A stretch of DNA of 63,912 nt, counting the filler, from Licmophora abbreviata (taxonomy: Eukaryota): NCBI GenBank assembly GCA_900291995.1. It is 11 parts of 11 records of this genome, joined end to end, with 100 filler letters (N's around TTAATTAATTAA, not from the genome) between each part and the next. Parts side by side here need not be neighbours in the genome. Positions count along the whole stretch, not along the records: positions 29,561 to 45,275 come from OLMU01001954.1; 10 more parts are not named here. One strand, given 5' to 3'. The notes beneath the pieces are model-generated. The model was not told the origin of the DNA, did not search any database, and saw only the letters and a list, made by a program, of their open reading frames with translations. Shown here one piece after another: positions 1,272-62,516 of this stretch; within the stretch, counting starts at the first letter, position 1, and every line of letters begins with the position of its first letter. Position numbers and translations under genes: made by a program.

Positions 1272-1671
1272 TATCCTTTGCTTTTTGGGAGCGCTCTACG
1301 AGGACTACTCTTCACATATTCTTACATAGCGACTATTCAACACAGGTACTCTCTCTCTCTCTATTGATAGTACGCCCCTGCTGGAGTGGGCGTCCCTCTG
1401 TGCTAACAATCCTTTCAGGGGTGCCAAGGAGTCTATTGTCTACCAGGCACCGGCAAAACAAGCTACTGGTACCTGTTCTCGAAGTTCCGGCTGATAGATC
1501 GACGATTCGAATGAATCAAAATCTTGATCTTCAGACTGATGACTGATGATGACATCAAAAAAGTCAGCGCGACCATGTTGTGATGTCGACCCTTCAGAGG
1601 CCCTCAGAACAATCTTTTTCTTGTCCTTCGATCAGAGTTTTTCCCTGTTCATCTACTGTTGCCAACATACG

Positions 1672-5145: not shown

Positions 5146-5245
5146 NNNNNNNNNNNNNNNNNNNNNNNNNNNNNNNNNNNNNNNNNNNNTTAATTAATTA
5201 ANNNNNNNNNNNNNNNNNNNNNNNNNNNNNNNNNNNNNNNNNNNN
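5146..5245. other. Artificial scaffold gap linker N44-TTAATTAATTAA-N44; also at 7233-7332, 20917-21016, 22280-22379, 24531-24630, 29461-29560, 45276-45375, 50395-50494, 58688-58787, 62417-62516
   Basis: Ten 100-nt blocks of the same design; the palindromic 12-mer places stop codons in all six frames. Confidence 0.97.
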
Positions 5246-15527: not shown

Positions 15528-17492
15528 CTAGTCCACACGGCAATGGCCATCCCAGCAGGACGGTCCAGCGGCGGGCACAATCCGAATGAGGTTAGCTGCG
15601 CCTGGGGTGCCAAAAGGAAGACCAGCAGTGACTACCAACAAATCATTAGGATCAGACACGAGGCCTTTCTTCAGGGCTGCACGGCAAGCATTTCGAAGAA
15701 CAAGGTCCAGGTCGTCCGACGCCTTCTCCACAATAGCGCTATCATAATCAAACATGTCTTCTTCGCTCACAGTGTAACCATATGATCCCGCCTTGGGAAG
15801 GTCAGGGTAGACTCCCCACGACAGCACAAGCTGACGAGCCGTTTCCTTGAAGGGACAGAGGGCCATGATAGGAACATTCGGTCTCTTCATGGACGCACGG
15901 CTGACAGTACTACCACGAAGGGAAAAACACACGATTGCCTTGGCTTTGATAGTGGAGCTAATCTGACGAGCGGCAACAATCATGGCATCCGTGGGCGTGT
16001 TATCTGGCTCGGGTGCAACGGCATTCAAAATTCCACGGTAGTGCGAGTCACCCTCCACGCGGTTGATGATGCGTTGCTGCATAGCCACGGATTCTTCGGG
16101 GAACTATGAGCATGAGATACAAGCGTTCAAAAGAGACAGTGAGAAACTCAATCACATTTCACGCTCACCCAGTAAACCTAAAAGAACTTACGCTTCCAGC
16201 AGCACTCTCAGCACTAAGCATGATAGCATCGGCACCATCGTAAATTGCTGTGGCAACATCACTCGCCTCGGCACGCGTCGGGGTTGGCGACTCAATCATA
16301 CTTTCCAGCATCTGCGTGGCGACCACGACGGGCTTACCCTGCTTGCGGCATTCATCGATAATGGTCTTTTGCAGAATCGGTACGTCCTCGGGGGCGCACT
16401 CGACCCCCAAGTCTCCACGGGCAACCATGATTCCATTGCACAAGTCGACAATGCGCTCGAGGTTGTCATCAAGAAAGCAAGAGGGCTTTTCAATCTTGGC
16501 CATGACAGCAGGCTTGAACTGGCCTTCTGGGAGATTTGCATCAATGAGCTGATGGATCTCTTCAATATCTTGAGGACGCTGGACAAAAGAGAGAGCAACC
16601 CAGTCGACGCCTATCTGCAGCATGTATTCCAAGTCGGAGCGATCTTTGGGAGTCAGGGGACTGATTTCAAGGACAGAGTCAGGCGTGTTGACTCCCTTGC
16701 GGTTGGAGATCTTGCCACCAACATCGACGCGGCAGTCGAGGTACCTGTCTCCCTTGCTAGTAACCGTCATCTTGACTTTTCCATCGTCGACCATGAGAAC
16801 ATGTCCAATTTCCGAGGCGGCAATGATCTCGGGGTGGGGGAGCATGACACGATTCCTGTCGCCCTTGGCTTCGTCCAGATCGAATCGGAAGGTCTGACCA
16901 GTCTCGAGGACTTCCCCAGTTTCCGAAGAGAACTCTCCTACCTGCGCAACCATGAGTGTTGGAAAAGAAGGAAATCTATAGTGAGAATTTGCAACAACGA
17001 CGTCACATGAGTGTCGCACCAATTTTCAAAACTTACACGAAGTTTGGGTCCCTGTAGATCACCGAGGACACCGATAGGATGGGAGTACTTCTCCTCGATT
17101 TCCCTGATCATGGCCAAGAGCTCCTTCTTTTGCTCCTGAGATCCATGACTAAAGTTCAGACGGAACACGTCGGCTCCGGCCAAGAAGAGTTTCTCGATCA
17201 TCTCCTTATTGGAGGAAGCGGGTCCAAGAGTGATAACCTGCTTGGTGGACTTGCGCCAGCGCTGAGCGACCTTGGGGACAGCAGCCACAGTCGTTTCCTC
17301 GGCGCTAGGAACGAATGTCATGCCGTATTTGGCGCCATTGGTGACGGTTCCGTTCGCCACCGAGGAGTAGAGAGCCGTTGTCTGCTTGTTCTTGGCCCCG
17401 AGGAAGAAGGACGGTCTAGTGACAGAGGCAGGCACAAAGGCCTTCACCGTGGCTGCTGCAGATGCAGCGATGACGATGGACGAGAGCTTCAT
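15528..17492 (-). CDS. PK: Pyruvate kinase, plastid-targeted, 3 exons (17492-17037, 16941-16192, 16103-15528)
   Basis: [64 protein letters not shown] introns at 16942-17036 and 16104-16191 restore the frame; signal peptide ending VKA-FVP followed by a transit-like peptide. Confidence 0.95.
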
Positions 17493-17889
17493 CTTCTTTG
17501 GGTGAACTTAACAACCTTACTTGCTTTCTCCGAAAAAGATAAACCTGGTGTGCCTCGGTAGCATCACACAGGAAGCTCACACGTTTGATTGACGTCGATC
17601 TCTCCCGAACCCCACCAGCCAGCCAATCAAAGTTCGTGTGGAGATGGATTCGAAGCAGTGAAGTGACGTGTGTCCGAAATTTATCGACTGGCGGACGGAC
17701 GTTTTGACGGTTGTTTGACAACTCCGCGCGAAACGAACGCGCAACAACTTGAGTGGAGTCTGGCCGCCCGGCGTTCCCGATCATCCTCATCACAGCCGTT
17801 CATTTGCGGACAGAACAAATTCCTCGCCTTTCAAGTTTACATCTTTGCTGTCATCGTTCGCTGCGTCGCTGCTTGTTTGTTCACCCACC

Positions 17890-20591: not shown

Positions 20592-21084
20592 CTAGCCCAT
20601 GTGCTCTGGTTCCTTCTTGAAAAATACCAATTTGTCTTTATTTTTCTGTTGCTCCTGCACCGGCCTCGTCGATGGTGGTTTCAAAGCCGAGAACATCTGC
20701 CTCCTGTCGATCTTCTCTTCCGTAACACGGTTTCCTCTTTCTTCTTTCTCGTCGCATGTAGAGTCATTTTCCGCGTCGTCGTCGTCCGATACAGAAGCTT
20801 GGGTGAGATTTCGGAAGGACAAGAATGACTTCCTTACTTCGAGAAGAATCGATTCCTTTGTAGCGTCAATGCAGCCGTGCAGGTCGTGATCAGTGCCCCT
20901 CCCACTTTCTTCATCANNNNNNNNNNNNNNNNNNNNNNNNNNNNNNNNNNNNNNNNNNNNTTAATTAATTAANNNNNNNNNNNNNNNNNNNNNNNNNNNN
21001 NNNNNNNNNNNNNNNNTCTGCTGCCCCGGCCACGACGCTCTGGAAGATCGGACAGCTCTCTAAAAATTCGCAGTCAGCACTCAT
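20592..21084 (-). CDS. Small acidic hypothetical protein, tandem paralog A, middle hidden by gap 20917-21016
   Basis: N-terminus MSADCEFLESCPIFQS from ATG 21084; C-terminus LHGCIDATKESILLEVRK..DRRQMFSALK..KDKLVFFKKEPEHMG*. Confidence 0.65.
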
Positions 21085-21964: not shown

Positions 21965-22447
21965 CTAGTCGTGCGTATACTCCGGTTCCTTCTTGAACAA
22001 GACCAACTTGTCCTTGTCTGCCCGCTGCTCGTTCGTCCCATTGGAAGGATCCTTCAAAACGGAGAACATTTCCCTCCTATCAAAAGTTTCTGCTTCCTCA
22101 GACTTTGCCAGTCCTTCTTCCTCGTCTCCTGAAGTGCTGTCGTCAACAACAACATCTGGCTGTTGGCCGAGACTACGGAATGATGTCGTGAACGTTTTCT
22201 TCACTTCGTTGAGAATCGATTCTCTTGTCGCGTCAATGCAGCCGTGCAGGGCCTGGTCGGTAGCCTTGCCGTCCCCCTCNNNNNNNNNNNNNNNNNNNNN
22301 NNNNNNNNNNNNNNNNNNNNNNNTTAATTAATTAANNNNNNNNNNNNNNNNNNNNNNNNNNNNNNNNNNNNNNNNNNNNCCCTCGGCCGCAGAAGCGAAG
22401 GACTGAAAGGCGGGACATGACTCGAAGAATTCACAATCAGCGCTCAT
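21965..22447 (-). CDS. Small acidic hypothetical protein, tandem paralog B, middle hidden by gap 22280-22379
   Basis: N-terminus MSADCEFFESCPAFQS from ATG 22447; C-terminus LHGCIDATRESILNEVKK..DRREMFSVLK..KDKLVLFKKEPEYTHD*. Confidence 0.65.
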
Positions 22448-24387: not shown

Positions 24388-25005
24388 CCAAGCCAATTTT
24401 CAGCACGCTTAAATTGCTGTCATCTTCGCTGTCATTCAAGATGAAGTCACCCATGGACAGTGTGCGACGACGCTGATGTCGTCACAGCAGGACGGAAGTT
24501 TGTGGGCAGTTTGCTTTCCGAATTTCGAATNNNNNNNNNNNNNNNNNNNNNNNNNNNNNNNNNNNNNNNNNNNNTTAATTAATTAANNNNNNNNNNNNNN
24601 NNNNNNNNNNNNNNNNNNNNNNNNNNNNNNCCGAATTCTGCGCGCAGTTCATCATAACCCATATTTTCTAGCGCAATCCAACGTACAGTTCTTGACGGTT
24701 GTCATATAACAAGCAATTTTTTCACTATATGGTCGCTGGGTTGTATTACGTTCACTCTGTCGAGACCAACCGACTACGGAATCATGGACTCTAGACTAGT
24801 CCTACATCACTACTCGTAGAACGATAACTCTAGGAGACGTTATTCCTCACGTTCTAAGATGATGGCTGTCTTAGTAGAGACTGACTTGCGCCTCGTGTTC
24901 ACAATGTACTGCACGTTCCGCACAATAAAAGGTTAAGAGTCACGCTTGTCTTGCGTGGCATCGCATCATTTCGCCACGAGACTACGTACCCTACCGTTTG
25001 GCAGG

Positions 25006-27884: not shown

Positions 27885-30800
27885 ATGCTGACCACTGGCC
27901 TTCTGTCGTTGTCGATTCACGAGACCCTGACCTTTGATGGGATCGAACTAGCTCTCCATCCTGATCTGTTTGCTGATCCCTCTTCTCGGCAGAACAATAT
28001 CTCGACCGCCCGGCAGCTTCATCGTTCTGGCTCTTCGACATCGCTGGCTACCGCTCCTGCAGGGACTACGGGCAAGAAATTACACAATAGGGTTCCTAGT
28101 CTTAGCGAAGCGCTTCCCGATCTCACTGGGGAGGCCGAGTCAACGGTGGAAGGAGATGAGGGTCGCGCTCCGGCGGGGTCGGCTGAGTCTTCTGTGACTT
28201 TGAGTCGACGACTGGAGGTGGGAGACATGATTGAGATACGTGTTTGGGACCCGATCGAAGGGCGAAAAAGGACCGAAGAGTCCTCAGGTCGTGTCTTCAG
28301 ACGACGAGTGTCACCCCCGAGCGCTTCACTCAGGGGTTCTGTCGCTAGCTCAATGGCTGGGGACGTCCAGAGGACTGCTACCACATCTTCTGTTCTGGAG
28401 GCGGATCCTTCATCGCTGAAAGGAAAGACGGACCTTCATCTATTCTCACGCAGTACTCGACTGACTCAGGAGGTGAAAAAGGAACGGGTTCATCGACAGT
28501 GACTGAGTCCGAACAGCATGGCGAACCTAAACACACGTTTGACGAAGCGATAGCGTCCCGTTCGCCGGATGCCCCAAACACGACGCCTGAGTCCAGCAAG
28601 CCTCCGCCAGTCCCCCGCCCCCGTCTTGCCACTGTCGATGCGATACTTTCTCGTAGCAGTGCACCGCTCAAGCCAGATACGGTGTCCAGATCTCGTACCT
28701 CTGCCACTGCACCAGACGACGCGAGGCTGCGCTCCCCCGTTGCGGCCCAATCCTCGAAGTCGATGTTTCGCAGCCATAGTCGCGATGTTTCTGATATGAC
28801 CGTGGACACTGTGTTCGGGGGAGCACACAGCGGTGGTGGCGATTTGCTGATTCAACCGTCCGAACTGGGGACTTTATCTGTGGATAGCTACGATGATGCG
28901 CATGTCGAAGAGCAGAGCACTCTATCCCGAATCGCCAAGTCACACAATGTTCGACTTTCCTTTGTAATGCTCGTGACAGAAAACATGCTGACATCCATCA
29001 AGGGCTCCGCGAGAACACAGGTCTCCATGTTACGTCAGGTGGCTGACTTATATGAGCTCTCATCGTACGATATGATTAGCATCAACAAGATTGAAAAGAC
29101 TGAGGAGGCGTCGGCTCTGGAGAAGGTGTCTGCTGACTTCATTTCGATATCTTTCAAAGAGCAATTCATTTCACGAGCGGATATGCATTATTTTCAGAAT
29201 TTGTTGATTGGGAGATGGGTTTACGAGGGTGAGAGGCTTGTGGACACAACCAAGGTGAGTAAAGCCCACGCAATATGACCATGCTGCAACGACGGGAACA
29301 CCCTGACCACAGATACGTCCTTGGAATCGTTAGGGTATCACTGCACATGCAAGAGAAATAAGACATAAAAAGCGACTTGCAAGATCAGGAATTGTTACCA
29401 GCGACACATTGATAACGTTTCGGAGCAGATCAGCTCGCATTGTCTGGCTGGTCCAGATTTNNNNNNNNNNNNNNNNNNNNNNNNNNNNNNNNNNNNNNNN
29501 NNNNTTAATTAATTAANNNNNNNNNNNNNNNNNNNNNNNNNNNNNNNNNNNNNNNNNNNNAGCGACACATTGATAACGTTTCGGAGCAGATCAGCTCGCA
29601 TTGTCTGGCTGGTCCAGATTTCGTCCGAAATGTGGGATTATGCATCGCCGTACGAAGCAGGCGAGCACGACAAAGATGCAAGAGACGAAGAGGCCTCATC
29701 TGAGTTGTATTTTGAAAAGTTTGTCGGTTTTATGTATCGCCTCTTTGAGAAATGGCAGGCACTCGAGGTAAGAAAATACCTTGGATGGTGCTGTGGTTAG
29801 GGTTAGCTTCACAAGTCTCACCTGTACCTGTCATGCGCTTACAATCAGGTCACTCATTCACTTACTGTCATATTCTTTAGCCGTACATTTTTGGGTTTAT
29901 CTGCTATGTCAGATGGAAATACTGGACATGCAAATGTCGATGTCTATGGTCGCAGATATGAGGTCAGTACTGAATGATCCATCGGATGGGCTGACAACAT
30001 TTGTATCAACATAAGTCTAATCGTAACCTTTCTTGCGGTCAGGATCACTTCAAAACGGTTGTTGGAAACGAGACATGCATTGATTGGGATTCATTGGTAG
30101 TCCAGATCAAAAGGGAATTCATTAGGTATCCGTTTGAAGTTGGCTGGGACCTCTCTTCTCGGAGTCCGTCGACAGCAATGCAGGGGAACATCCTGGAGGC
30201 AATCAATGTGACGTTGAATCTTATGCAGTTTCATTATCTGGACAGAGATCTCCATCGAACTGGAAATAGCATCGTTGTCGTTTCAGCTGGGTGCGGGGTG
30301 TTCGAAGTGGATAGAGGACTGGCCGGTATTACCTACCAACGAATGATGGACCACGGCATTGGGAGCGATATGCTTAGTCTGGGGCTGCCACCATTGCACA
30401 CAGCACCTTTCTTCCATTACACTGTGAGTAATACTCCTGTTATCATGAATCGATCATAATTCTTGCTCACAAGCCAGGGACTCCTTTCGAATACAGAATG
30501 ATGTTGTCAACGCCGACACGCATGGCGTTAATGCCGATACAACATACCATGAAGTGCCTCACTGGATGCATTTGTCTTTTGTCGGATATGAGGACGCAAC
30601 ACCTTTGGCTGAACCATTTCTTAGATCCGGTAAGTCCCTGTAGTGGGTCTGACTGTTGTGTTCATCAAGCACAGCTCACAAAATCACTCGTCGCACTCAA
30701 GAATCACGGACGGTCCCGGAGCTACCAGCTGTTGAGATAGCGCCAAATGGGTTTCTTTTGCCTCGACAGCCAGATAATCGTGACTCGCTTGAAAAGAAGG

Positions 30801-36575: not shown

Positions 36576-38732
36576 ATGGCACCCTCCTCGCCGCATCGCT
36601 CGGAAGTACAAGTGAGCAAGTCCCCTGCCGAATTCTTCGCTGAAAATCAAGCCATCGCTGGCTTTGATAACTATGGAAAGTCTCTCTATACGACGATCCG
36701 TGAGCTCGTCGAGAACTCGCTCGATGCCTGTGAGTCGGTGCAGGTATTACCCGATATCAGTGTCAGTATTGAAGAAATGACACAGCACGAATTCAATGTC
36801 GTCCGTGGACTGACCAAGAAGGACGGCAAGAGCTCTCTGGAACGCAAAGACATCGGTCTCTTCACAAATAAGAAGAAGGGTCGCAAGTCTACGTCAACTC
36901 CCTCTGAAACGGAAAGTACGACACAAGAAGCCCCAGGAAATGAAGTTGCCGACACGCTGGATGCTGCCAAGCCTCTCGCAGCAGACACCAAGATGGCTGC
37001 TGCAGCCTCCAAGTCATCCGCTAAGAAGAAAAAGAAGGCTCCATCGGAAGGCTACTTTCGCATCAAGGTGCGCGACAATGGTTGTGGCATGTCCCACGAC
37101 GCCATTCCGAATCTTCTGGGACGCGTGCTATCGGGCTCCAAGTACGGTGTGCGCCAGACGCGAGGGAAGTTTGGACTCGGGGCCAAGATGGCTCTCATAT
37201 GGAGCAAAAAATCGACCGGTGTGCCGATTGAGATTCGGACGGCGCACATGGCGACGCCGGGGGTCGTGGGAACACACGTGAGCAAGTGTGTTCTGGACAT
37301 TGATATCTACAAGAATCGACCGCGGATTCTGGAACACACCAAGCGACCTAATACGGAGCAGTGGGTCGGGACCGAGTTTACCGTCATCATTATGGGAAAC
37401 TGGACAACCTACAAGGCGCGAATCGTTCAGTATCTTCAGCAACTTGCCATCATTACGCCTTACGCCAAGTTGGAAATGAACTATCAGAACATGTCAGAAG
37501 AGAAACGTAATATGAACATTAGATACGACCGTCGTTCAGAGCAGATGCCGGCCCCTGCCAAGGAAGTCAAGCACCATCCGAGCAGCGTCAACAACCTTCT
37601 GGTCTCTCAGCTGCTTGAGCGGACACGATCCAAGACCTTTACCAAGTTTCTGTGTACCGAGTTGAGTAGCGTAAGTCCGGCTCTGGCCAAGCGACTGATT
37701 GCTGAGCTGGGATTCGACGAAAGTATGCATCCCTCAGAGATCGGCGACAAGCAGGTTACGCGGCTGGTACAGCTTTTGCGCAGTGTGGAACTGTTCAAGG
37801 CGCCAGATGGGTCTTGTTTGTCGCCACTGGGAGAGTACAATCTAAACCTGGGCATTCGCAAGGTACTTGAACCCGACGTGGTGGCCACGGCGAGGGACAA
37901 AGCTAGCGCGTACGAAGGACACCCGTTCATTGTAGAAGCGGCAGTGTCAATCGGCGGAAAGGATGTTAAAGAAGGCATCACGGTGGTCCGCTTTGCTAAC
38001 CGAATTCCTCTGCTCTTTGAAGGAGGAGCCGATGTTGCTACGCGAGTGGCACAAACCAAGATTCGATGGACAAATTATAAAATCGACATGAAGCGTGACA
38101 AGATCGGAGTCTTCGTTTCTATTGTGTCGACGAAAGTTCCATTCAAGGGGACGGGAAAGGAGTACATTGGAGACGATATAACGGAGATTCAGCTGTCCGT
38201 GAAGCGAGCCCTTCAGAGCTGCTGTCAGCAGCTGCGAACACACTTGGCCAAGAAGCACGCCTTGAAGGATATCAAGGAGCGTAAGTCGCGCCTAGTCAAG
38301 TACGTCCCCGACGTGGGCCGAGCTCTCTTTGGTCTACTTGACGGGATGCGCAAGCGAAAAAATGAAGAAGGGGGGCAGCACATCGGCGAACGAGGAGAAG
38401 ATGAGGATAGATCTAAGCGAATCAGACTGGACGACCGTGACGCTCGTGACATGATTCGGATGCTGGATCGTGGCCAAGTCACCGAGGATGTTCTCAAGAA
38501 GCGTCTCGTTGAAAACATTGAGTCACAAGGAGACTCGGCCGAACAGCTGGAGGTGTCCGTCAGTGGGGCATCTGGGAACAAGGGGAAACGAAAAGTCAAT
38601 CGAGGGCTGGGTGATGCCCAGCCTCTCTTCCTGCTCTGCCTGCCAAAGATGAAATCCTCAGAACATGACATGCAACACCCTTTATTCACGTTTCGTCCGA
38701 TCAAACCAATTCAAAGTGACGTCGATAACTAG
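36576..38732 (+). CDS. TOP6B: DNA topoisomerase VI subunit B
   Basis: SPAEFFAENQAIAGFDN, TTIRELVENSLDA, DNGCGM, GSKYGVRQTRGKFGLGAK, RFANRIPLLFE, STKVPFKGTGKEYI. Confidence 0.95.
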   Translation: MAPSSPHRSEVQVSKSPAEFFAENQAIAGFDNYGKSLYTTIRELVENSLDACESVQVLPDISVSIEEMTQHEFNVVRGLTKKDGKSSLERKDIGLFTNKKKGRKSTSTPSETESTTQEAPGNEVADTLDAAKPLAADTKMAAAASKSSAKKKKKAPSEGYFRIKVRDNGCGMSHDAIPNLLGRVLSGSKYGVRQTRGKFGLGAKMALIWSKKSTGVPIEIRTAHMATPGVVGTHVSKCVLDIDIYKNRPRILEHTKRPNTEQWVGTEFTVIIMGNWTTYKARIVQYLQQLAIITPYAKLEMNYQNMSEEKRNMNIRYDRRSEQMPAPAKEVKHHPSSVNNLLVSQLLERTRSKTFTKFLCTELSSVSPALAKRLIAELGFDESMHPSEIGDKQVTRLVQLLRSVELFKAPDGSCLSPLGEYNLNLGIRKVLEPDVVATARDKASAYEGHPFIVEAAVSIGGKDVKEGITVVRFANRIPLLFEGGADVATRVAQTKIRWTNYKIDMKRDKIGVFVSIVSTKVPFKGTGKEYIGDDITEIQLSVKRALQSCCQQLRTHLAKKHALKDIKERKSRLVKYVPDVGRALFGLLDGMRKRKNEEGGQHIGERGEDEDRSKRIRLDDRDARDMIRMLDRGQVTEDVLKKRLVENIESQGDSAEQLEVSVSGASGNKGKRKVNRGLGDAQPLFLLCLPKMKSSEHDMQHPLFTFRPIKPIQSDVDN

Positions 38733-39001
38733 CTATTGTAGCAGCTACGATGATAGCATGTTGGGTTTTGAGTTTTGATATCATAACGCGGTGGCAATCT
38801 CAAATACTGTAGGTTTGAAGATGTGTAATTCCGCAGTTCATAAGTGTGACGTCATACACTCCATCCGGGAATTGATTCGATTCGGTTTTCTCGTTTTCTC
38901 TTTCTCACGTGCTTCTTCCATTCAAGAGTCGGAAGAAGTACTCGACCAAGTGCTCCGTGGTCTGTTGCATATCCAGACTACGATCAGAAAGCAGCACAAC
39001 T

Positions 39002-40352
39002 ATGTGGCGACGGCTTGGCAACAGCGCATCGTGGCACGGGGCTGCCGGTATTCGGTTCAAGTCGTCCAGCGCCGGTGGCATCAAGTCCGGATTGAACGTA
39101 TCGAACGTAGCATCAGCACACGGTGTACGTCTCACGAAAACTGAACTACGGTGTCTGCGAAACCAACTCGACATGAACAAAGATGGTCTAGTGTCAGCAG
39201 GAGAGCTGGCCAAGGCAGGGAAGCAAGCATTGGAAAAACAATGGACGCGAGAGTTGTGTTTGAGCGCCGTAGAAAAGCCTCAATCCACCGCAGAACATTT
39301 GGGCTCCCGTGTTCTGTCCTACTTAGATTACGCGGGTACAGCTCTATTCGCTGTGGTAGGAACTCAGCTTGCGGGAGAAAATGGAATGAACGTCATCGGC
39401 TGCGGCCTGGTGTAAGTGAGAACGCTGTATATCCGCTTCACGATAAAGTTTTCTGGTCCAGTTGTTCCAAATGTTCGACTCATCACGCTCGTCCTTCGAT
39501 CGATCCCAGGGGCTGCATCGCTGCCATGGGTGGAGGGACACTCAATAATATCTTGTATGGCAGTTCCGCTTTGTTGCTCGACAAATCTGGGGTATTCTGG
39601 ATTCGGAATCCTTCGTTCTTGATGGTTTCCGTGGTGGCGTCTGTCTTCACGTTCTACTCCTGGCCTCTTTACTGTCGTCAGGCCGCAAAGCATCGACTGG
39701 AACGCTTTATTGGGGAAGACAATCTAAACCCGGATGGCAGTGTAACATACAAGCATTCTTTGAAGCATGTAAGCGGGACAGGGAGTTTGCCAAGAGCGTC
39801 GCTGTGGCGTTCGGCATGGATCCCCTGACGGCGTCGCCCGCAGAGTTGTTCGTTGCCGCGGATGCGGACAAGACGGGGAAGATATCCTTGGCCGAGATGG
39901 AAGCTGTAGTGGCAAAGCAGTTTGATGCGTCGCCGACCATGTATGCTCTTGATACGGCTGCGCTAGCAGCATTTTCTGTCGTGGCTGTCAATGGCGCGGT
40001 CCAGCGTGGCTTACATCCTGTGGTTGCGGCTACTTCGGGTGTGACTATCTGCTTTGGAGGTATCCTGAGAGACGTCTTGTGCGGCCGTGACCTCGCGATT
40101 GGTGGACAAAGCTATGCCTTTGCGACTGGAGCAGGGTCGGCAGTTTATGTTATGTTGAGAGAGTTGAGACTCAGGGGGTATCCTATAACCTTGATAGTTC
40201 GAATTGTCTGTGCCTTCGCTACCACGTCGGGGCTCAGAGCTTGGGAGTACGTCAGAGGTGAACCGCTGCTAAGAGCAATGCATTACCACGATGAAAAGGA
40301 ATCGCGGCTTCTCCAATCTCTGAATCACTATGCGACAGAAAAAGTTACATAA
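39002..40352 (+). CDS. UPF0126/TRIC-like (glycine transporter family) membrane protein with EF-hands; intron 39412-39509; apparent 1-nt frameshift at about 39753
   Basis: Repeat 1 LDYAGTALFAVVG..GMNVIG..CIAAMGGGTLNNIL; repeat 2 LDTAALAAFSV..SGVTICFGGILRDVL..YAFA; EF loops DMNKDGLVSAGE and DADKTGKISLAE; Arg/Ser-rich N-terminus without acidic residues. Confidence 0.8.
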
Positions 40353-40412
40353 AGAAGAAAGAAGTAAAAACTATTCTGATATTATGTGAAGAGTACACGG
40401 ATCTACTGTCTC

Positions 40413-43160
40413 TCAATGAATCATTACGGCCCCATCGTCGTCCAACATTTCAATATCTTCTTCCGTCTGGCGATCCTCGTTTGGGATATCCGTCTCTTCA
40501 AGTCTGTAACGAAGAGTCCGTGGCTTCTTGACCGGAACCCCGCAGTCGTCGAGAGATGCTTCTTCTGCGTCAACCGCCTCGATGTGAACAGTGAATCCAC
40601 TGGCAAGCTCGCCGCTGAGCAGCAATTTACTCAGTGCTGTCACAATCGTTTTCTCCATGTAGCGCTCGACGGGCCGTGCGCCGTAATTCGGATCGTAGCT
40701 CTCTGCCAGGATAGTTTTCACGCCACTGCTCTCCAACACCACCCTCACGCCTTTCGGTTCCAATCGTCTCTTGATGCCCGTGAGTGTATTCTGACAGATC
40801 TTCTCCATTTGCGTCATTCCAAGGGAGTTGAACATCACCGTAGCAGAGAGTCGGTTGAGAAACTCGGGGCTGAAGTGCGATCGCACACTGGTCATAACCT
40901 TGGCGTGTGCCTCTTCAATTCTTTCGTGGTCGTCCTCAGTGAGATCCTGCAAGTATTGGGCTCCAATGTTTGATGTGAGAATGATGACGGTATTCTTGAA
41001 GTCCACGGTATTCTTCTTTGAGTCTGTGAGACGGCCCTCGTCAAGAACTTGCAGTAGGAGGGTTAAAACACGAGGGTGCGCCTTCTCTACCTCGTCGAAA
41101 AGTACAACCGTGTAAGGGCGCCGCCGAACTGCCTCTGTTAGATAGCCCCCTTCGTCAAACCCAACATATCCGGGAGGAGCACCAATGAGCCGGGACACGG
41201 AATGAGGCTCAGTGTACTCGCTCATGTCGATGCGGACCATATGGCGCTCGTCCCCATCGTAGAGTTCGGAGAAAAGGGCCCGACTTAAGAGTGTCTTCCC
41301 GACCCCCGTGCCACCACAGAAGAGAAATGACCCAGTTGGTTGGTTTGGGCGCGACAGTCCAGCCTTGGAACGGAGCACACAGTCAACGACTTCGCTGACG
41401 GCCGCGTCCTGTCCAATTACCCGTTCCCTCAATCGGTCGCCCAGATTGAGGAGACGCTCTCTTTCAGTCTGTGAAAGTTTCGATACTGGAATTCCTGTCC
41501 ATCGAGATATGACTTCCGCAATGTCCTCTGGTGTAACCACCTCGGACACCATGGACTCGTCATCGCTTTCAATTGCCGCTGCTTTGCGCTCTGCCTCTTC
41601 CTTCTGAATGTTCGCCAAATGAGCTTTCAAATCAGGAATAGCGCCGTAGCGAATATCGGCAGCCCTTTCGTAGTCGCCCACGCGCTCAGCTGTCGCCGCC
41701 TTCGCTTCGAGGCCAGCAAGCTTCGCCTTAGCGCTCTTTAGTTCTTCGGCACGTCCACGATCTGCCTCCCACTTTTGGGCGAGAGGGGCAAGCTCCTCGC
41801 GTAGATTGGCAAGTTCCGCCTGAATACTGTGTCTTCGCTTCTTCGAAGCCTTGTCTTTCTCGCGTTTTAACGCCGTCGATTCGATCTCCAGTTGCAGGAT
41901 GCGACGCTCAAGCTGGTCGATTCGTTCGGGTCGACTGTCCAGACTCGTTCTCAAAGTCGCCGCAGCTTCGTCCATAAGATCTATGGCTTTGTCCGGCAGG
42001 AAACGTTGCGTGATGTAGCGATGAGATAGCTGTGCAGCAGCCACCAGGGCCGCGTCGCTGATTCTAACCCCATGATGGGCCTCATATCTGTCAGTCAAGC
42101 CACGGAGGATTGAAATTGTTGACTCGACAGATGGCTCTCGAACGGAAACCTGTTGGAAGCGCCGTTCAAAGGCTGAATCTTTCTCCACATGTTCTCGATA
42201 CTCATCCAAGGTTGTGGCGCCCACCATACGAAGCTCTCCTCTTGCGAGCATGGGCTTTAGCATGTTGCTTGCGTCTAGAGATCCATCGCCTTTGCCAGCC
42301 CCCAGCATTGTGTGCATTTCGTCGACAAACAAAATAATTCTTCCCTCAGCTGTTTTGCATTCGTCAAGAATGGCCTTGAGACGCTCCTCAAAATCGCCTC
42401 GATACTTGGCGCCAGCGACCAACGCGCCCATGTCCAAGGTTCGCAGCGCGATTCCTTTCAAGGTTTCAGGCACGTCGCCTTCCAGAATACGTCGCGCCAG
42501 GCCTTCCACAATTGCAGTTTTTCCCACACCAGGTTCGCCGATTAGCACGGGATTGTTTTTGGTTCTCCGAGAAAGAATCTGAATTACGCGCCGAATCTCC
42601 TCATCGCGTCCAATGACGGGATCAAGTTTTCCCTCCTCTGCCATCTTGACGAGATCTACGCCATACTTTTCAAGTGCTTCGTACGATTCCTCCGCAGACG
42701 CGGACGTCACTTTGCCATCTCCACGAATATCCTTGAGGGTCGAGACAGCCAGCGTTCGCGTCAAGCCAGCCTTTTCCAAAATACCTTTGACTTCCTTGTC
42801 ATCGTACAACCCCTCCACCAGGTGATCTAGTGCTACTAAAGCATCTCCGTTCGACTTGGCCGCCTTTGTGGCACGCTGGAGGAGTTGTGAGGAAGCGTTC
42901 GACAGACTCGCCTCCATCGGTGCAGGGGTCTGAGAAGGCCGCTGCAACAACGCTCTCTGTAGATTGCGTTGAATTACATTCACGTCCAGATCAGCCTTGT
43001 TAGCCTTGGCACAAACACGTGCCCCGATGGATTCGTCTCCAGAGTACAAGACGTTGCCCAAGTGCAACGGGTCCGCCATAGCGTGTCCATAGCTTCTAGC
43101 TAAGGCAAGCGACTGTTCAATCGCCTTTGCTGTCGCATCAGTAATAGTTCGTTCTGTCAT
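40413..43160 (-). CDS. clpB: Hsp100/ClpB chaperone (cytosolic Hsp101/Hsp104 type)
   Basis: GKLDPVIGRDEEIRR, RRTKNNPVLIGEPGVGKT, GAKYRG, RFLPDKAIDL, coiled-coil M domain, GTGVGKT, RIDMSEY, GAPPGYVG; no targeting extension before ATG 43160. Confidence 0.95.
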   Translation of the reverse strand: MTERTITDATAKAIEQSLALARSYGHAMADPLHLGNVLYSGDESIGARVCAKANKADLDVNVIQRNLQRALLQRPSQTPAPMEASLSNASSQLLQRATKAAKSNGDALVALDHLVEGLYDDKEVKGILEKAGLTRTLAVSTLKDIRGDGKVTSASAEESYEALEKYGVDLVKMAEEGKLDPVIGRDEEIRRVIQILSRRTKNNPVLIGEPGVGKTAIVEGLARRILEGDVPETLKGIALRTLDMGALVAGAKYRGDFEERLKAILDECKTAEGRIILFVDEMHTMLGAGKGDGSLDASNMLKPMLARGELRMVGATTLDEYREHVEKDSAFERRFQQVSVREPSVESTISILRGLTDRYEAHHGVRISDAALVAAAQLSHRYITQRFLPDKAIDLMDEAAATLRTSLDSRPERIDQLERRILQLEIESTALKREKDKASKKRRHSIQAELANLREELAPLAQKWEADRGRAEELKSAKAKLAGLEAKAATAERVGDYERAADIRYGAIPDLKAHLANIQKEEAERKAAAIESDDESMVSEVVTPEDIAEVISRWTGIPVSKLSQTERERLLNLGDRLRERVIGQDAAVSEVVDCVLRSKAGLSRPNQPTGSFLFCGGTGVGKTLLSRALFSELYDGDERHMVRIDMSEYTEPHSVSRLIGAPPGYVGFDEGGYLTEAVRRRPYTVVLFDEVEKAHPRVLTLLLQVLDEGRLTDSKKNTVDFKNTVIILTSNIGAQYLQDLTEDDHERIEEAHAKVMTSVRSHFSPEFLNRLSATVMFNSLGMTQMEKICQNTLTGIKRRLEPKGVRVVLESSGVKTILAESYDPNYGARPVERYMEKTIVTALSKLLLSGELASGFTVHIEAVDAEEASLDDCGVPVKKPRTLRYRLEETDIPNEDRQTEEDIEMLDDDGAVMIH

Positions 43161-43440
43161 GGTCAATCAATGTAGGTTGGTGCTACTTTGTGAGAACTTG
43201 GAACGATCGGGATGGAGCGAAATCGATTTCAGAAGCTGGTTTCCACGACTGAGAATTTCTTCGATCGAAATCTTGGACGAGCGTACGAGCTCCTCAAAAA
43301 GGAGCACGATGTAACTCGAACGACACATCGATCGCGATCTCTTCTGAGTGTCCGCGATCATTGGACCCAGTTAACTGACCATGCATGTACATCAGTACCC
43401 GTAGAAGCGCAGAACCCTATCATATGCACTCAGTGCGGTG

Positions 43441-44157: not shown

Positions 44158-44521
44158 GATACACGGCGTTTGAAAAAATAACACTTCTGTGCGGTGCAGC
44201 GGCACGTTTGATATCCATCGATCTGTCGTCAGGAACACACATCGGCGGCGCAGTCGCTGTGTCCGTTCGTCGCGAGCGCGCCCGTCCGTTTATATAAGTT
44301 CACGCGCGCCAGTCGGCGTTCCCAAAACAGGGACTGGATGCCGGGTTTCGAATTCATCATCAATCACGTTGTACTCCCGCGGACGGCGACGACGCCGGTC
44401 TCCATCTTCCGTTGCGCGGCCCCTCTTCTTTATGCTCCCCTTACGACGCCGTAGAAACGTCTTTTTGTTGCCAGAAGAAGCACCGGGTGACCTGCTCTTT
44501 ACGTTGCACCGTTCCCAAAAG

Positions 44522-46367
44522 ATGTGCTCCTTGCCGTCGGTCGTCCACGATGAACTCGTAATAGCGGGAGTCAACGAAACCATCACATCATCGGTGCCGA
44601 TGCAGACCAGTCAAGTCGCGTCAGAGCAAGAGTTACATACTCTGATTGCACGTGTTGGAAGTAGGTCTAATTTTGGAGGTGACGCTATGGATCGACAATG
44701 GCGTCGAGTACAGCTACGATGCCAGACGCATCCCAAGGAGGTGGCGGCGCTCGACCGCCGCGGAAGGATGGGTCTGCATGCCGCTTGTGCCAAAAAGCCA
44801 ACGATGGCTGCTGTGAATGCCCTGTTGAATGCTATGAGCTCAGATGATTCTTGTCACAGTGGACTGTTGCATTGCGACAATCATGGACGAACTCCCCTTG
44901 CCACTGCCATTGGGAGTAATGCTAGCTTCCGAGTCGTGAAACGTCTATTGGAGGTTGCACCAGAAGCCTCAGAGTCCACAGATGATGCAGGAATGCTGCC
45001 GTTGCACCTCGCATGCTTTGGATATGATATTGAAAGAGTTGAACTGGTAAGACTCTTGCTCGAGGTATATCCAGAGGGAGCCCATATGGCGAGCTGTCCA
45101 CTCGCGATCGTCGCCGGCCGGGGAAGGACTCCACTCCATGCAGCTCTGGAAGGAAATGCCCCAATGGAAGTAATCCAGATTCTAGTTAAGGCCTTTCCCA
45201 ACGCGGTCATATCCCAGGACAGCCGGGGTAGCTCAAAGTCTCGGGCAGCTGTAGGGAATTACAGTGGCTGCAGCTNNNNNNNNNNNNNNNNNNNNNNNNN
45301 NNNNNNNNNNNNNNNNNNNTTAATTAATTAANNNNNNNNNNNNNNNNNNNNNNNNNNNNNNNNNNNNNNNNNNNNGGGCAGCTGTAGGGAATTACAGTGG
45401 CTGCAGCTCGCTCGACTGGGCCATACGCCACTTCGTGTCGGTAGATGTGATTCGCTGCATGGTGGAGGCATGCCCGGACGTCATACATTCGCATGATGCG
45501 ATGGGGAGTCTCCCCTTGCGCTATGCCGTTGAATCCCAGCGGTCGACTGACGTTTTGGAATGTCTTGTAAATACAAACGCGGCATCGGATATTGTTCTGG
45601 ACACAGAAATGGGAAATACTGTCTTGTACAACGCTCTCTGTGATGGGCGTGTGCCTCAAGAATCCACCGTTCGTTTCTTGGTCCGTTTGGCTCCGCAAGC
45701 GGTGAACCAGAGGGCCAAGGCAGGTCGAACTCCGTTGACACTTGCCTTTCAGACTTTTGAGAAGGGAGTGCGTTCGGCGGCGGGTCGATCGGGCACACTG
45801 CATTTGTGGAACATAATTTGTACAATGCTTCGGGCGGCGCAGTACGGACGACTGGAGAAAAGTGACCCTATCCTACACGCGGCTGTGTCTCGGCTTGGTC
45901 CCCATACAATTGTCGTGAAAGCCCTGCGGCAACATCCGGAGCAGGTTCGAATGGTAGACCAACACGGACACGTCCCCATCTTGTTGGCATTAAATGGACC
46001 GCGCAATGACAAGTCCGCGATTGTGGTGCAAATGCTAGAATCTCATCCAGATGCAGCAATTTTCACCGATCCAGAAGGACGTTCTGTCCTCTCACATGCC
46101 GCTTGCTCCATGTCCGTGACTCCCGACGCCTTAGGCTGTCTGATTCAGGCCCACCCAGCGGCGCTTCGTCAATTGGATCCACTACATTCGCTCTATCCGT
46201 TTCAGCTGGCGGCATTGAAAAAGAGACCGCGTCTCGGTCCAAAAATCACTCATATTGAACTCCAAGAGGGGAACGAAAACGTCAACGAGGATTTGCTTCA
46301 GCTGTCAGCCATCTTCAAACTCCTTCAGGCGGCACCTGATTTGGTTCATGCTCATCGTGCCGAGTGA
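44522..46367 (+). CDS. Ankyrin-like repeat protein spanning gap 45276-45375
   Basis: Repeats GRMGLHAAC, GRTPLATA, GMLPLHLAC, GRTPLHAA, GSLPLRYA, LYPFQLAA; the frame is continuous once the 33-nt duplicated flanks are merged. Confidence 0.8.
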
Positions 46368-49435: not shown

Positions 49436-50898
49436 TCAGCTGAAGGCCATCTCGGGATGAGGCGAGAGCTCCAAATCGATAGTTGGCATGTCCGTCGTCG
49501 ATTCTACTTCTCTGTTTCTACCACCAGCACCGGTATTGGTTTTCACATAGCCAGATGGATCACTATTCACAGGACTCGGTCCCATTTCATAAATGCAGAC
49601 ACCACTGACAGTCATACTTAGCGCTACCCAGAACAGCGGACTCGGTACGATGCGCTCTCCAACAACGGAAAAGATGACGGACCACAAATCGCCAGTCAGA
49701 AAGGAGAGATTCAAGAATGTCGCTTCCGATACTAATAGAAATCGAGAGGCTCCCACATAGCTCACAGCGTTGGTCACTGCGTATGCAACGAGCAGCCCTA
49801 ATGCCTTTTCCGCAGAACAGACGGAGTCGTCTTTGCCTCGAAACAAGTCGGCAATGTCGTCTTGCTCCAGTATCGCAGTCTGAATGATGGAAATTACAAG
49901 GCAAAAAATCCCATCATTCCCAAAAACTCGGTGGGACCTCCAAAAATGCGGACTGATGTCTCGGCGAGCACATCGTTGGCACCGTAGCAGATGCCCCCCA
50001 GAATCGCCAGCAGATCGCCCCAGGCTTTTCTTGGATACTGTCGCTCGCCCTCCGTGTCCAGCTGGTTATGTGCATCCGATTCGTAATCGGCCAAGACATT
50101 GAATACGACACCCACTAGACACGCAAGGACGCCAACATAATGAATGGCCGTGTAGCGTCGCTTCAAGAACACAACGGAGAGAATCATTGCCGATGGAATG
50201 GCCAAGGCATCAAAGAGTGTTACCGACGTGAGCGTTGTGTATCGGAACGCCAAGACGGTGAAATAGTTGGCCTGGACATCCAGAAAGGCAATGCCCAGGT
50301 AAGTCAGTGGATGGACACGTACTGGTATGACCCAACAGAACCAGTGGGTTCGTGATGGGCAGCTGTTGTCTTGTCGTTCGTCAATAACGACGCCNNNNNN
50401 NNNNNNNNNNNNNNNNNNNNNNNNNNNNNNNNNNNNNNTTAATTAATTAANNNNNNNNNNNNNNNNNNNNNNNNNNNNNNNNNNNNNNNNNNNNATACGG
50501 CGTAACTTTCGTCCTTGATAGTACAACGGGATCAAATGAAGAGACAAAATAAAATAGATGATCCCCGAACTGAATGTAGGTGCCGATAAGTGACACTGAA
50601 AGTGCAGAGTCGCTTGGGACGCCCCGCTGCAGGCAAGAAGAAAGCTCAGAAACTGGCCAAAGAGCACGATTTTGCAGTAGGCTGGGGGAGAAGAAAACTG
50701 ACGGCTGGCATCCTGGGTAGCCTTATATGGGCCCATTGCTCCAATCGACAGTTCCTCCTGTGGATGGTCGAAGAACATGTGGTCCTGGCTGTGTGCTGCA
50801 GAGTCGCCGACACCGGCGTATCGCCCACTCACGTTGATGATGTATCTGCGCGAGGAGGAGCTTAGCTGACTGCCGTCAGGGTAATCGGACTCGTTCAT
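49436..50898 (-). CDS. SLC35F1/F2-like (DUF914) transporter, copy 1; spans gap 50395-50494; apparent frameshift at 49903-49908
   Basis: FGQFLSFLLA, DVQANYFTVLAFRYTTLTSVTLFDALAIP, GDLLAILG..YG..DV..E, SEATFLNLSFLTGDLWS. Confidence 0.85.
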
Positions 50899-58650: not shown

Positions 58651-59184
58651 CCTTTGTTGCTTATTGGCTACAGCCAACACCGACCAGNNNNNNNNNNNNN
58701 NNNNNNNNNNNNNNNNNNNNNNNNNNNNNNNTTAATTAATTAANNNNNNNNNNNNNNNNNNNNNNNNNNNNNNNNNNNNNNNNNNNNGGTGCCTGACCTT
58801 GTTGCTTATTGGCTACAGCCAACACCGGCCAGACGTCGACCGAAGCTAGCTGCGCAAGTATTCATAAGGCTGAGTCAAATATACTTCTCGTCTAGTTTGC
58901 CATGAAAGGGGGCAGTGTGGGTGGGAAGAGAGCAGGGAGGTGAAGCTTTCCATCACTCTGCTGAAGAAAGTGGCTGTCATCAGTGCCTTGAGTCGAATGA
59001 GTCGAACAGGGTCATCGGACATGAAAACTTCACGACGAGATGGACGATGATGTGAACGATGAAGAATTCCGTCAGCCCCGTGTTTCACATTGAGACGTTG
59101 CATTGGAGGGAGAATCGAAAAGAGTGAGCTCCGCGGCCGTTGTGACAGGCTCCCCAGTTTGGAAGTTCGATCTCCTTTCGTATC

Positions 59185-60579
59185 ATGTCGGAGTCATCGG
59201 GAGCATCAGAGACTTCGATGGCCGCGAGCCAGCGTCGCTTGTCACAGAGCCTTCACTCGCATTACAGTTTTCAGGACGACCATCTCTCGGTGGATGGGTA
59301 CGGAGACGAAGAGGATGCTCTGATGAAAAATGAAAAATGCAGAGGATGGGATTCGATCTTGCAGGAAAGGTTGAACTGGAAGATTCTCGCCTTTGGGCAG
59401 ATCCTGAGCTTTCTGTTTGCCAGTCAAGGGGCAGCACAGTCATCGCTACATTTAGACTGTGACCTTTCCGCCCCTACGTTTACAACAGGCATCGTCTATG
59501 TCTTCCTCCTGGTGAATCTGGTCCCCTTGTATCTTTCGGGTCGTCGCATGCTCCGTTCCAAAATAGAAGGGTCTCTCATGAAGGACAGCCAACCCTCGTC
59601 TGCTGCGCCTTATTGGTTCATGAAAAGCATTCCTCTTCACGCATCCCCGTGGGCGTACTTTGGAATTGCCTTGCTGGACGTAGAAGCAAACTATACTTCA
59701 GTCATGTCATTCCAGTTCACGACACTGACATCGGCTTCTGTCTTTGACGCCATGGCTATTCCCTCCGCAATGGCGCTGTCACGGATCTTTCTAAAACGCA
59801 AGTACGTTTGGATTCACCTTCTGGGCGTTTCCATTTGTCTTGGTGGAATCGTTGCGAATGTTTTGATTGATTATGAGAGCCAAGTCAAGGGTGAGCAAGA
59901 GGTTGCGGAGGAGCAAGAGGGGGGACAGGTGAATGAGCAGGACGTTGTTGAAGCAGAAGAGTACCCACATCGCTTGCTGGGTGACATCCTTGCCATTCTG
60001 GGAGGACTTCTCTCTGGTGCACGAGATGTGCTGACTGAAAAAACAGTGCGAGAAGGACAGAGCTCAGTGGAGTATCTTGGAATGATTGGCTTGTTTGGAA
60101 TCGTGGTTTCTTTCATTCAAGTCGTTTTATTGGAGCGTCAAGACGTGGCGAACTTGTTCGCGTCATCTAGCTCGACGTGTTCTGTGCAGACAGGTGTATT
60201 CATATTGTCATCGTATGTTATGGCAAACTTATTGCGATATCTGGGAACTGCGCGCTTCTTGCTTGTGTCCGAGGCGGCGCTCTTGAATCTGTCGCTTCTG
60301 ACCGGTGATTTGTGGTCGGCTGTCTTTTCCGTTCTCGGCGAAAAGATCGTACCGCCACCACTGTTCTGGCTGGCTCTCGTTCTCATTCTGAGTGGCGTTC
60401 TTGTGTATGAGGTCGGTCCCACTCCTGTTATGAAGAGTAAGAGCCAGACATTTAATGAGGAGCGAGTTCGGGAGACCTTGGGTGGCTCTACGAGCCCAGA
60501 TTTTGAGAGCCCCGAGGGCGAGTTAGAGATACCTCAGATGTCCAGACCCCTTCATGGGAGCCTATCTAGTTCTTTATAG
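59185..60579 (+). CDS. SLC35F1/F2-like (DUF914) transporter, copy 2
   Basis: FGQILSFLFA, DVEANY..FQFTTLTS..FDAMAIP, GDILAILG, SEAALLNLSLLTGDLWS; intact ORF. Confidence 0.88.
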   Translation: MSESSGASETSMAASQRRLSQSLHSHYSFQDDHLSVDGYGDEEDALMKNEKCRGWDSILQERLNWKILAFGQILSFLFASQGAAQSSLHLDCDLSAPTFTTGIVYVFLLVNLVPLYLSGRRMLRSKIEGSLMKDSQPSSAAPYWFMKSIPLHASPWAYFGIALLDVEANYTSVMSFQFTTLTSASVFDAMAIPSAMALSRIFLKRKYVWIHLLGVSICLGGIVANVLIDYESQVKGEQEVAEEQEGGQVNEQDVVEAEEYPHRLLGDILAILGGLLSGARDVLTEKTVREGQSSVEYLGMIGLFGIVVSFIQVVLLERQDVANLFASSSSTCSVQTGVFILSSYVMANLLRYLGTARFLLVSEAALLNLSLLTGDLWSAVFSVLGEKIVPPPLFWLALVLILSGVLVYEVGPTPVMKSKSQTFNEERVRETLGGSTSPDFESPEGELEIPQMSRPLHGSLSSSL

Positions 60580-62416: not shown

Positions 62417-62516
62417 NNNNNNNNNNNNNNNNNNNNNNNNNNNNNNNNNNNNNNNNNNNNTTAATTAATTAANNNNNNNNNNNNNNNNNNNNNNNNNNNN
62501 NNNNNNNNNNNNNNNN

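Follow-up and report, generated by a model that had tools for sequence, protein, structure and literature searches.

What kind of protein results when EF-hands are joined to the membrane domain of a prokaryotic-type TRIC channel, and what might a diatom use it for? The question is raised by a two-exon gene at positions 39002-40352, on the (+) strand, of a stretch of Licmophora abbreviata DNA (GenBank assembly GCA_900291995.1; 63,912 nucleotides, made of 11 parts joined end to end and referred to here as the window). The locus, a nuclear gene of diatom type, falls within a eukaryotic branch of the prokaryotic-type TRIC (UPF0126/PF03458) family that is conserved and uncharacterised. A sequence-only reading had presented its product as the window's strongest candidate for a new function, namely an EF-hand-bearing, TRIC-like mitochondrial cation channel or glycine carrier that could serve photorespiration. 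The architecture itself, the kinship with TRIC, the EF loops and the presequence-like N-terminus have all stood up to analysis; a uniqueness of the architecture has not, nor has the connection to glycine and photorespiration, for which there are bacterial fitness data only (10.1101/072470, available part). The best reading places a cation channel first and a glycine carrier second: the gene would encode a Ca2+-modulated cation channel of the TRIC type, probably mitochondrial, and the frameshift that interrupts it would most likely be an error of assembly. Taken as a whole, we regard this reading as evenly poised between right and wrong.

The channel domain is the firmest part of the picture. 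A Pfam search with the pieces of the window finds PF03458 (Gly_transporter, formerly UPF0126) as two tandem repeats, as the sequence-only reading had proposed on the strength of the signatures AMGGGTL and CFGGILRD, both of which are present. Repeat 1 (39311-39672; this and all other features of the gene lie on the (+) strand) corresponds to transmembrane helices TM1-TM3, i.e., the N-terminal three-helix bundle. It is interrupted by the intron, the exon-1 part covering profile positions 2-30 (E 4.9e-5, 23.5 bits, equal to the cut-off of 23.5) and the exon-2 part positions 33-77 (E 1.2e-3, 19.1 bits). Repeat 2 (39942-40163), which represents TM4-TM6 and thus the C-terminal three-helix bundle, matches profile positions 2-77 at E 1.8e-10, with 41.0 bits against the cut-off of 23.5. 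The animal TRIC (TMEM38) family gave no Pfam match, PF03458 and EF-hand families being the only ones found at E up to 1.

Within these repeats the residues that matter for a TRIC channel are in place. A glycine kink, GGGTLNN (39529-39549), lies within repeat 1, where AMGGGTL occupies 39523-39543, and in repeat 2 the motif CFGGILRD (40050-40073) combines the TM5 glycine kink with the RD of the lock. This kink motif is described for the channels treated in the available part of the SaTRIC paper (PMC5477506). In an alignment of 82 long homologues (A2), which was used for all conservation counts and for modelling, the TM2 and TM5 kinks are kept, G156, G157, G332 and G333 each being found in 81-82 of the 82 sequences. 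The lock residues, carried by repeat 2, are D (in ALDT), RD (in GGILRD) and Y (in QSYA) and align with their counterparts in RsTRIC and CpTRIC. Their conservation among the homologues is nearly complete: the TM4 position is acidic in all 82, R336 and D337 are each present in 81, and Y351 occurs in 71, with F in another 8. A seventh helix, TM7, can be placed at 40191-40244 by alignment to helix 379-400 of the structural model described below, and it is followed by a conserved C-terminal tail, EPLLRAMH (40260-40283; family consensus PLLxPMH).

The structure was modelled on the Seminavis orthologue P0160 with alignment A2, in place of the frameshifted and intron-split product of the window. The AlphaFold2 model obtained from the 82 sequences has a mean predicted local distance difference test (pLDDT) score of 88.7 and a predicted template modelling (pTM) score of 0.82, and only its first 27 residues are disordered. 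Its best nine Foldseek matches in the Protein Data Bank (PDB) are all prokaryotic TRIC channels (5h36, 5wuf, 5wuc/d/e, 5wtr and 5h35), with target-normalised template modelling scores of 0.79-0.88, and sequence searches of the PDB lead to the same family, both for P0160 and for the window's own repeat 2, which matches 5h36 and 5wuf. The TRIC relationship suggested beforehand is thus confirmed by sequence as well as by fold: as modelled, the orthologue has the seven-helix TRIC fold with its two inverted three-helix bundles.

Prediction of three copies of P0160 residues 100-413 gave a trimer score of 0.71, compared to 0.00 for the best control; of 30 proteins whose solved structure is a one-chain pair, 20 reach the mark used for this score, as does 1 of 23 proteins with a single-chain structure. 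Contacts agreed between runs to at least 87 % and the partner pLDDT was at least 76. By this prediction, the seven-helix protomer would probably assemble into a homotrimer with one pore per protomer. In the trimer model, the contacts scored as confident between protomers include the equivalent of the C-terminal tail (P0160 residues 403-410), and residues 277-284 of the EF3 exit helix of the neighbouring copy are in the same contact list, in which the pairs made by 277-284 are not itemised. The PLLxPMH tail may, according to this model, dock on the neighbouring protomer.

What sets the protein apart from a simple TRIC channel are its EF-hand modules. Three EF-type loops, one N-terminal and two between the repeats, had been read from the sequence, and they are found where they had been placed. 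Two tests were applied: a six-position rule for the 12-residue loop, D-x-[DNS]-x-[DNS/T]-G-x-[ILV]-x-x-x-[ED], and a PROSITE-style loop pattern. EF1 (DMNKDGLVSAGE, 39170-39205), which precedes repeat 1, is canonical at 6/6 key positions, and EF3 (DADKTGKISLAE, 39861-39896), located between the repeats, at 5/6; both fit the PROSITE-style pattern. EF2 (39721-39755), which reads NLNPDGSVTYK and then, across the frameshift, A, does not fit it, has 4/6 key positions and lacks an acidic residue at position 12. The loops recur in orthologues, as the sequence-only reading required for its interpretation to hold: EF1 is fully canonical in 30/82 homologues and EF3 in 25/82 (at least 5/6 positions in 39), both by the six-position rule. 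EF2 is canonical in none of the 82, with a maximum of 4/6, and judged from the alignment it is a conserved pseudo-EF partner.

The Seminavis orthologue, for which PF03458 scores 90.4 bits, exceeds the gathering scores of EF-hand_6, EF-hand_1, EF-hand_5 and EF-hand_7 with 32-36 bits. In its model, DSSP marks strands at 227-228 and 273-274, flanked by helices, and at 42 and 77 in the N-terminal module, and Foldseek matches the EF part to N-domain chains of troponin C. Judged by these marks, the inserted pair is modelled as two joined helix-loop-helix units whose loops are linked by a short bridge.

The presumed singularity of this architecture disappears once databases are consulted. A full HMMER search of 1.84 billion representatives returns 212 relatives with E values up to 0.001, of which many have lengths of 350-600 amino acids. 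Word-indexed searches yielded 62 long homologues and 84 were obtained with a profile, many with precomputed EF-hand and PF03458 hits. The closest relatives (P0157, P0159 and P0160) are 63-69 % identical to the window protein. Family members include a Seminavis robusta protein named ‘Membrane’, a ‘UPF0126 domain containing protein’ of Nitzschia inconspicua and homologues of Odontella aurita and Thalassiosira oceanica (EJK73825.1 in the latter) automatically named ‘EF-hand domain-containing protein’, together with proteins from several other Thalassiosira species. Beyond the diatoms, members come from the bolidophyte Triparma laevis and from the haptophyte Chrysotila; the Chrysotila member is an ankyrin-tailed form whose EF loops are degenerate. 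It falls into a distant subgroup (P0042, P0043, P0197, P0198, P0204 and P0206) that is characterised by degenerate EF loops and C-terminal ankyrin repeats. The combination of EF-hands with UPF0126 is therefore a widespread and conserved one that databases already list under automatic names, and none of its members is characterised. In the ESM Atlas there was no usable feature match, and the sole structural neighbour with a template modelling score by row above 0.5 is a bacterial PF03458 cluster.

The literature searched contains no description of an EF-hand-bearing TRIC-type protein. A search joining UPF0126 and EF-hand found no paper. Among the matches listed for UPF0126, no title or abstract start relates to eukaryotes; among those listed for TRIC and diatom, none mentions a TRIC channel in diatoms in its title or abstract start; and those listed for Gly_transporter, IPR005115, COG2860, YadS and YicG include no eukaryotic forms. 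TRIC and UPF0126 are likewise absent, by term search, from the main text of a survey of diatom Ca2+ channels (PMC11085791), and a preprint on Shewanella yadS is silent on function.

How could the EF-hands act on the channel? In the available part of their paper, Su et al. (2017, PMC5477506) describe SaTRIC as a K+-permeable trimer with one pore per protomer, shut on the cytoplasmic side by a hydrogen-bond network that links D99 (TM4), R139-D140 (TM5) and Y155 (TM6). In the open crystal form this network is broken and the inter-bundle connector turns helical, while the N-terminal bundle, with S53-N54 at the corresponding site, is permanently unlocked (PMC5477506, same part). The physiological stimulus that opens TRICs is given there as unclear, and the roles of prokaryotic and invertebrate TRICs as almost unknown. 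In the P0160 model the EF-hand pair occupies precisely the connector between the two three-helix bundles: the TM3 helix (183-216) extends as far as the EF2 loop, and the exit helix of EF3 (276-288) passes into TM4 (291-314), which has the lock Asp 6 residues from its start.

The mechanism that we favour starts from the two EF modules added to the TRIC core, an N-terminal helix-loop-helix with one canonical Ca2+ loop, and a pair composed of a pseudo-loop and a Ca2+ loop in place of the short inter-bundle connector. Binding of Ca2+ to the inserted pair would re-orient both the extension of TM3 and the helix ahead of TM4, and this movement would operate the single remaining D(TM4)-RD(TM5)-Y(TM6) lock, thereby gating a monovalent-cation (K+-type) pore. 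The protein would reside in the mitochondrial inner membrane with its EF modules facing opposite sides. An EF-hand Ca2+ sensor placed beside the lock, in the very connector that rearranges on opening, provides a testable hypothesis of ligand gating for TRICs, and the family amounts to a natural experiment on the stimulus that opens them.

The location proposed in this scheme derives from the N-terminus. Here the claim of an acid-free, presequence-like beginning holds: the 28-residue N-terminal extension MWRRLGNSASWHGAAGIRFKSSSAGGIK (39002-39085), a candidate mitochondrial presequence, contains 0 D/E, 5 R/K and 5 S/T, and the first acidic residue of the protein is at position 48. Extensions of at least 15 amino acids are present in 60 of 78 homologues that start with Met (median 49 amino acids); over their 3120 residues, D+E amount to 129 versus 543 for R+K, and the first 20 residues are free of D/E in 50 of the 60. 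None of the 60 contains a hydrophobic 12-mer of signal-peptide strength (Kyte-Doolittle value of 2.0 or more). Diatom plastid proteins require a signal peptide, and since the extensions are basic, poor in acidic residues and devoid of a signal-peptide core, a mitochondrial presequence is favoured. By this composition, the basic, acid-free N-terminus probably directs the protein to the mitochondrial inner membrane.

Three transmembrane helices separate the EF modules, and therefore the one at the N-terminus and the inserted pair must be on opposite membrane faces if the seven-helix topology given in the available part of PMC5477506 and the helix order of the model apply. Which face is which can be approached by a crude count of loop charges. 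In short forms of the bacterial type, K+R are enriched on the connector/C-terminal face in 9/10, a pattern that accords with the positive-inside rule, while for the 82 long forms the net charge is +3.2 on the N-terminal face, compared to +0.2 on the opposite one. This is a weak hint that the N-terminal module is on the matrix-equivalent side and the inserted EF pair faces outward. One may go further and imagine that diatoms, bolidophytes and haptophytes share a TRIC of prokaryotic origin in the mitochondrial inner membrane, gated directly by Ca2+ via the EF pair of its connector and, with the second EF module on the other face, reading Ca2+ on both sides of the membrane; it would serve as a counter-ion path for K+ in mitochondrial Ca2+ handling or as a Ca2+-tuned entry for photorespiratory glycine; we consider so broad a generalisation quite improbable. 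The family is a candidate for a widely conserved, unstudied organellar channel or transporter in a major group of marine primary producers, with possible ties to the way mitochondria handle Ca2+ and K+ or to the movement of glycine in photorespiration.

A number of considerations weigh against the Ca2+-modulated mitochondrial channel, and they concern the EF-hands, the solute, the trimer, the location and the integrity of the gene. The analysis shows the domain architecture, the fold and a conserved lock and EF loops; Ca2+ binding, gating, ion selectivity, the trimer in vivo and localisation we infer. The Pfam EF-hand models, applied to the pieces of the window, all remain under the gathering score (best 17.7 versus 25.4 bits); the sub-threshold matches are EF-hand_5 for EF1 (E 0.008) and EF-hand_1 for EF3 (E 0.0025). 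Moreover, EF loops are degenerate in many homologues, the PROSITE-style pattern occurring in either module of 48/82 and in both modules of only 10/82, and Ca2+ control is therefore not universal across the family. One could thus suppose that the modules are structural only, i.e., scaffolds for assembly or partner binding on a constitutive TRIC-type channel, as would fit an EF2 that is never canonical, the 34/82 homologues matching the pattern in neither module and the distant ankyrin-bearing forms that have lost their loops. Against this, canonical loops are kept by 29/82 in the N-terminal module and by 29/82 in the insert, the window protein belongs to the minority with both EF1 and EF3 intact, and the modules are placed where they are mechanically coupled to the gate. 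We find a purely structural role improbable.

The nature of the solute is a further matter. Five bacterial species specifically need their UPF0126 genes to utilise glycine, which speaks for a transporter rather than for a K+ channel, and the authors of that work proposed a glycine transporter (10.1101/072470, available part). The Pfam name of PF03458, Gly_transporter, together with the presequence-like N-terminus, would be compatible with a Ca2+-regulated mitochondrial transporter of glycine or another small solute, whose EF-hands tune import for glycine decarboxylase. However, the bacterial evidence is genetic, based on fitness, and within the available part of that report transport was never measured. 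No link to glycine metabolism was seen in the window or among the homologues. The only direct functional and biophysical data for the fold are those on the K+ conductance of an archaeal TRIC, a K+-permeable channel (PMC5477506, available part). For the diatom family the data fit either reading; a cation channel is retained as the first choice, and a glycine transporter, though rather unlikely, is a live rival.

As to the trimer, the high score may reflect a memory of solved TRIC trimers in the predictor; it speaks for likeness and is no proof. The mitochondrial location, in turn, has to accommodate the homologues with C-terminal ankyrin repeats. Ankyrin repeats are unusual inside mitochondria, and these relatives fit uneasily with a C-terminus within the organelle.

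The integrity of the gene depends on a single base. Translation starts at the ATG at 39002, there being no in-frame ATG between the upstream stop (38873-75) and this position. Exon 1 (39002-39411; 137 codons less one base) encodes the presequence-like N-terminus and, after it, the N-terminal EF domain, the whole of TM1 and the beginning of TM2; it was defined by translation, by alignment to 17 homologues and by the donor GTAAGT at 39412. The 98-nucleotide intron (39412-39509; GTAAGT...CAG, phase 2) holds stops in all three frames. Exon 2 (39510-40352), which includes the TAA stop (40350-40352), contains the frameshift. In the alignment of the window product with the 17 homologues (A1), splicing joins GC(T/G)LV to GCIAAMGGG as in the homologues, without gap or insertion.

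At 39751-39755, around the position 39753 at which a frameshift had been suspected, one base is missing and the frame changes by -1, AAG (39751-53) and GCA (39753-55) sharing G39753. Frame A reads ...NLNPDGSVTYK up to this point and frame B goes on with AFFEACKRDREF. All 17 homologues of A1 are in frame and equal in length across the site (e.g., P0013, NLNRDGSVDKQAFVEAC), so that precisely one base is lacking in the window. Without correction, frame A terminates at TGA 39826, 25 codons further on. Both halves are 60-70 % identical to P0159, and no further stop is encountered in the 199 downstream codons.

Is the gene dead? Either a pseudogene of recent origin or, in a diploid genome, a null allele would account for a base that is missing relative to 17/17 homologues and for the stop that soon follows. 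No homopolymer at the site exceeds a length of 3, which speaks for a real mutation, and since the flanking Topo VI-B-like and ClpB-type genes are intact long open reading frames (ORFs), indel errors are not dense in this region. Among contigs from public runs, nine pieces fall on 38900-40500 and none of them spans 39656-39925; a peptide-pattern scan of Joint Genome Institute (JGI) metagenome contigs produced 399 raw matches with 0 confirmed, and a wobble-tolerant DNA pattern near the site produced 0. On the other hand, the 199 downstream codons show no second lesion and conserved residues are kept. A further frameshift occurs in the window, at a T6 run of a conserved SLC35F-like gene, and makes an assembly error likelier here as well. 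The 20 N runs of the window, taken as a sign of draft quality, suggest the same, with the proviso that they coincide with the 100-nucleotide joins between parts. All in all, we judge an assembly error to be probable and a real lesion rather unlikely.

The second frame change, in the SLC35F-like gene on the (-) strand, maps to ~49,900-49,925 (within 49897-50065) and leaves no room for an intron. One ORF ends in ...GMMGFFAL followed by a stop, and the next reads ...GIFCLVISIIQ over the same bases, where the intact paralogue has LGMIGLFGIVVSFIQ. It was confirmed against this paralogue at 59146-60576 (+), and since it adjoins the T6 run a homopolymer miscount is plausible. The two SLC35F paralogues (59146-60576 (+) and 49439-50442 (-)) are ~46 % identical and lie on opposite strands, 9 kb apart along the stretch. 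The Pfam sweep of the window covered 57 of the 131 listed ORFs of at least 110 codons, the remainder being mostly shorter or overlapping.

Could splicing or recoding restore the frame of the TRIC-like gene instead? A cryptic 77-nucleotide intron, with a GTAAGC donor at 39769 and its AG at 39845, would do so and yield a protein lacking 31 residues between EF2 and EF3; among the 119 frame-restoring GT..AG spans, its donor resembles the GTAAGT of the real intron. Yet this donor derives from the codons TGT AAG CGG, the part left out is coding and conserved when read in frame B, with 20/33 residues identical to P0013 by our own count, and the segment is present in each of the 17 homologues of A1, so that we hold this intron to be extremely improbable. 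More generally, splicing around the frameshift was rejected because all 119 spans delete conserved residues common to all homologues. Programmed -1 frameshifting was also discarded, as there is no slippery X XXY YYZ heptamer at GTA ACA TAC AAG CAT.

The immediate neighbourhood of the gene consists of long ORFs. Upstream is a topoisomerase VI subunit B-like gene (36576-38729, (+); Topo-VIb_trans, E 7.7e-54). Downstream, a ClpB/Hsp104-type AAA+ chaperone is encoded by a 917-amino-acid ORF (40416-43166, (-)) that converges with the TRIC-like gene, the two stop codons being ~60 nucleotides apart. Elsewhere in the window, a pyruvate kinase gene (15531-17507, (-)) is split into three ORFs that match PK profile positions 2-78, PK 85-322 and PK_C; the gaps between them, ~100-200 nucleotides, fit short introns like that of the TRIC-like gene. 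In a single 1128-codon ORF (1543-4926, (+)), a protein kinase domain is joined by a PP2C phosphatase domain at the C-terminus. Ten sites, each spanning 100 nucleotides, contain two runs of exactly 44 N around 12 real bases, 880 N in all, a pattern that could stem from masking or gaps (5146-5245, 7233-7332, 20917-21016, 22280-22379, 24531-24630, 29461-29560, 45276-45375, 50395-50494, 58688-58787 and 62417-62516). The one at 45276-45375 lies between ankyrin-repeat ORFs at 44174-45328 and 45324-46364.

How, then, does the diatom protein compare with known systems? Its nearest counterparts are the prokaryotic TRICs SaTRIC, CpTRIC, RsTRIC and SsTRIC (PDB 5wuc/5wud/5wue, 5wuf, 5h36, 5h35 and 5wtr), with which it shares two inverted PF03458 repeats plus TM7, the TM2/TM5 glycine kinks, a D-RD-Y lock carried by the C-terminal bundle and, as modelled, the fold; it may also resemble them in forming the predicted trimer. 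It differs from them in being the product of a nuclear gene of a eukaryote, which has an intron and codes for a presequence-like N-terminus, and in its size, the diatom family being about twice as long, with an added N-terminal EF domain and an EF-hand pair that replaces the short TM3-TM4 connector. Differences of detail are also found. TM2 has NN in the diatom protein, whereas the four bacterial forms inspected have RD; in this it resembles archaeal SaTRIC, which has S53-N54 (PMC5477506, available part). The Asn that sits at the three-fold axis in prokaryotic TRIC corresponds to a near-invariant Cys-x-Arg, positions being matched by our own count, and the loop charge bias has moved to the opposite face.

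Animal TRIC-A and TRIC-B (TMEM38; C. elegans TRIC-B1/B2, 5egi/5eik; vertebrate structures 6iyu-6izf) share the overall seven-helix architecture and the trimeric form predicted here. Their fold match to the P0160 model is weak (target template modelling score 0.53-0.60, E >0.1), and they are without EF-hands. According to the available part of PMC5477506 they also lack the prokaryotic lock network, and their role is tied to Ca2+ handling in that they provide a K+ counter-current for Ca2+ stores. The bacterial UPF0126 ‘glycine transporter’ genes (e.g., SO1319, Psest_1636 and E. coli YicG/YadS) encode the same pair of Pfam domains in proteins of ~200 amino acids that are devoid of EF-hands. Finally, in the mitochondrial EF-hand membrane proteins MICU1, LETM1 and the Aralar/SCaMC carriers, the EF-hands that sense Ca2+ are either part of an inner-membrane transport protein or act as its partner. 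Their folds are unrelated to TRIC and homology is not expected; the likeness to the diatom protein is one of a Ca2+ sensor coupled to membrane transport.

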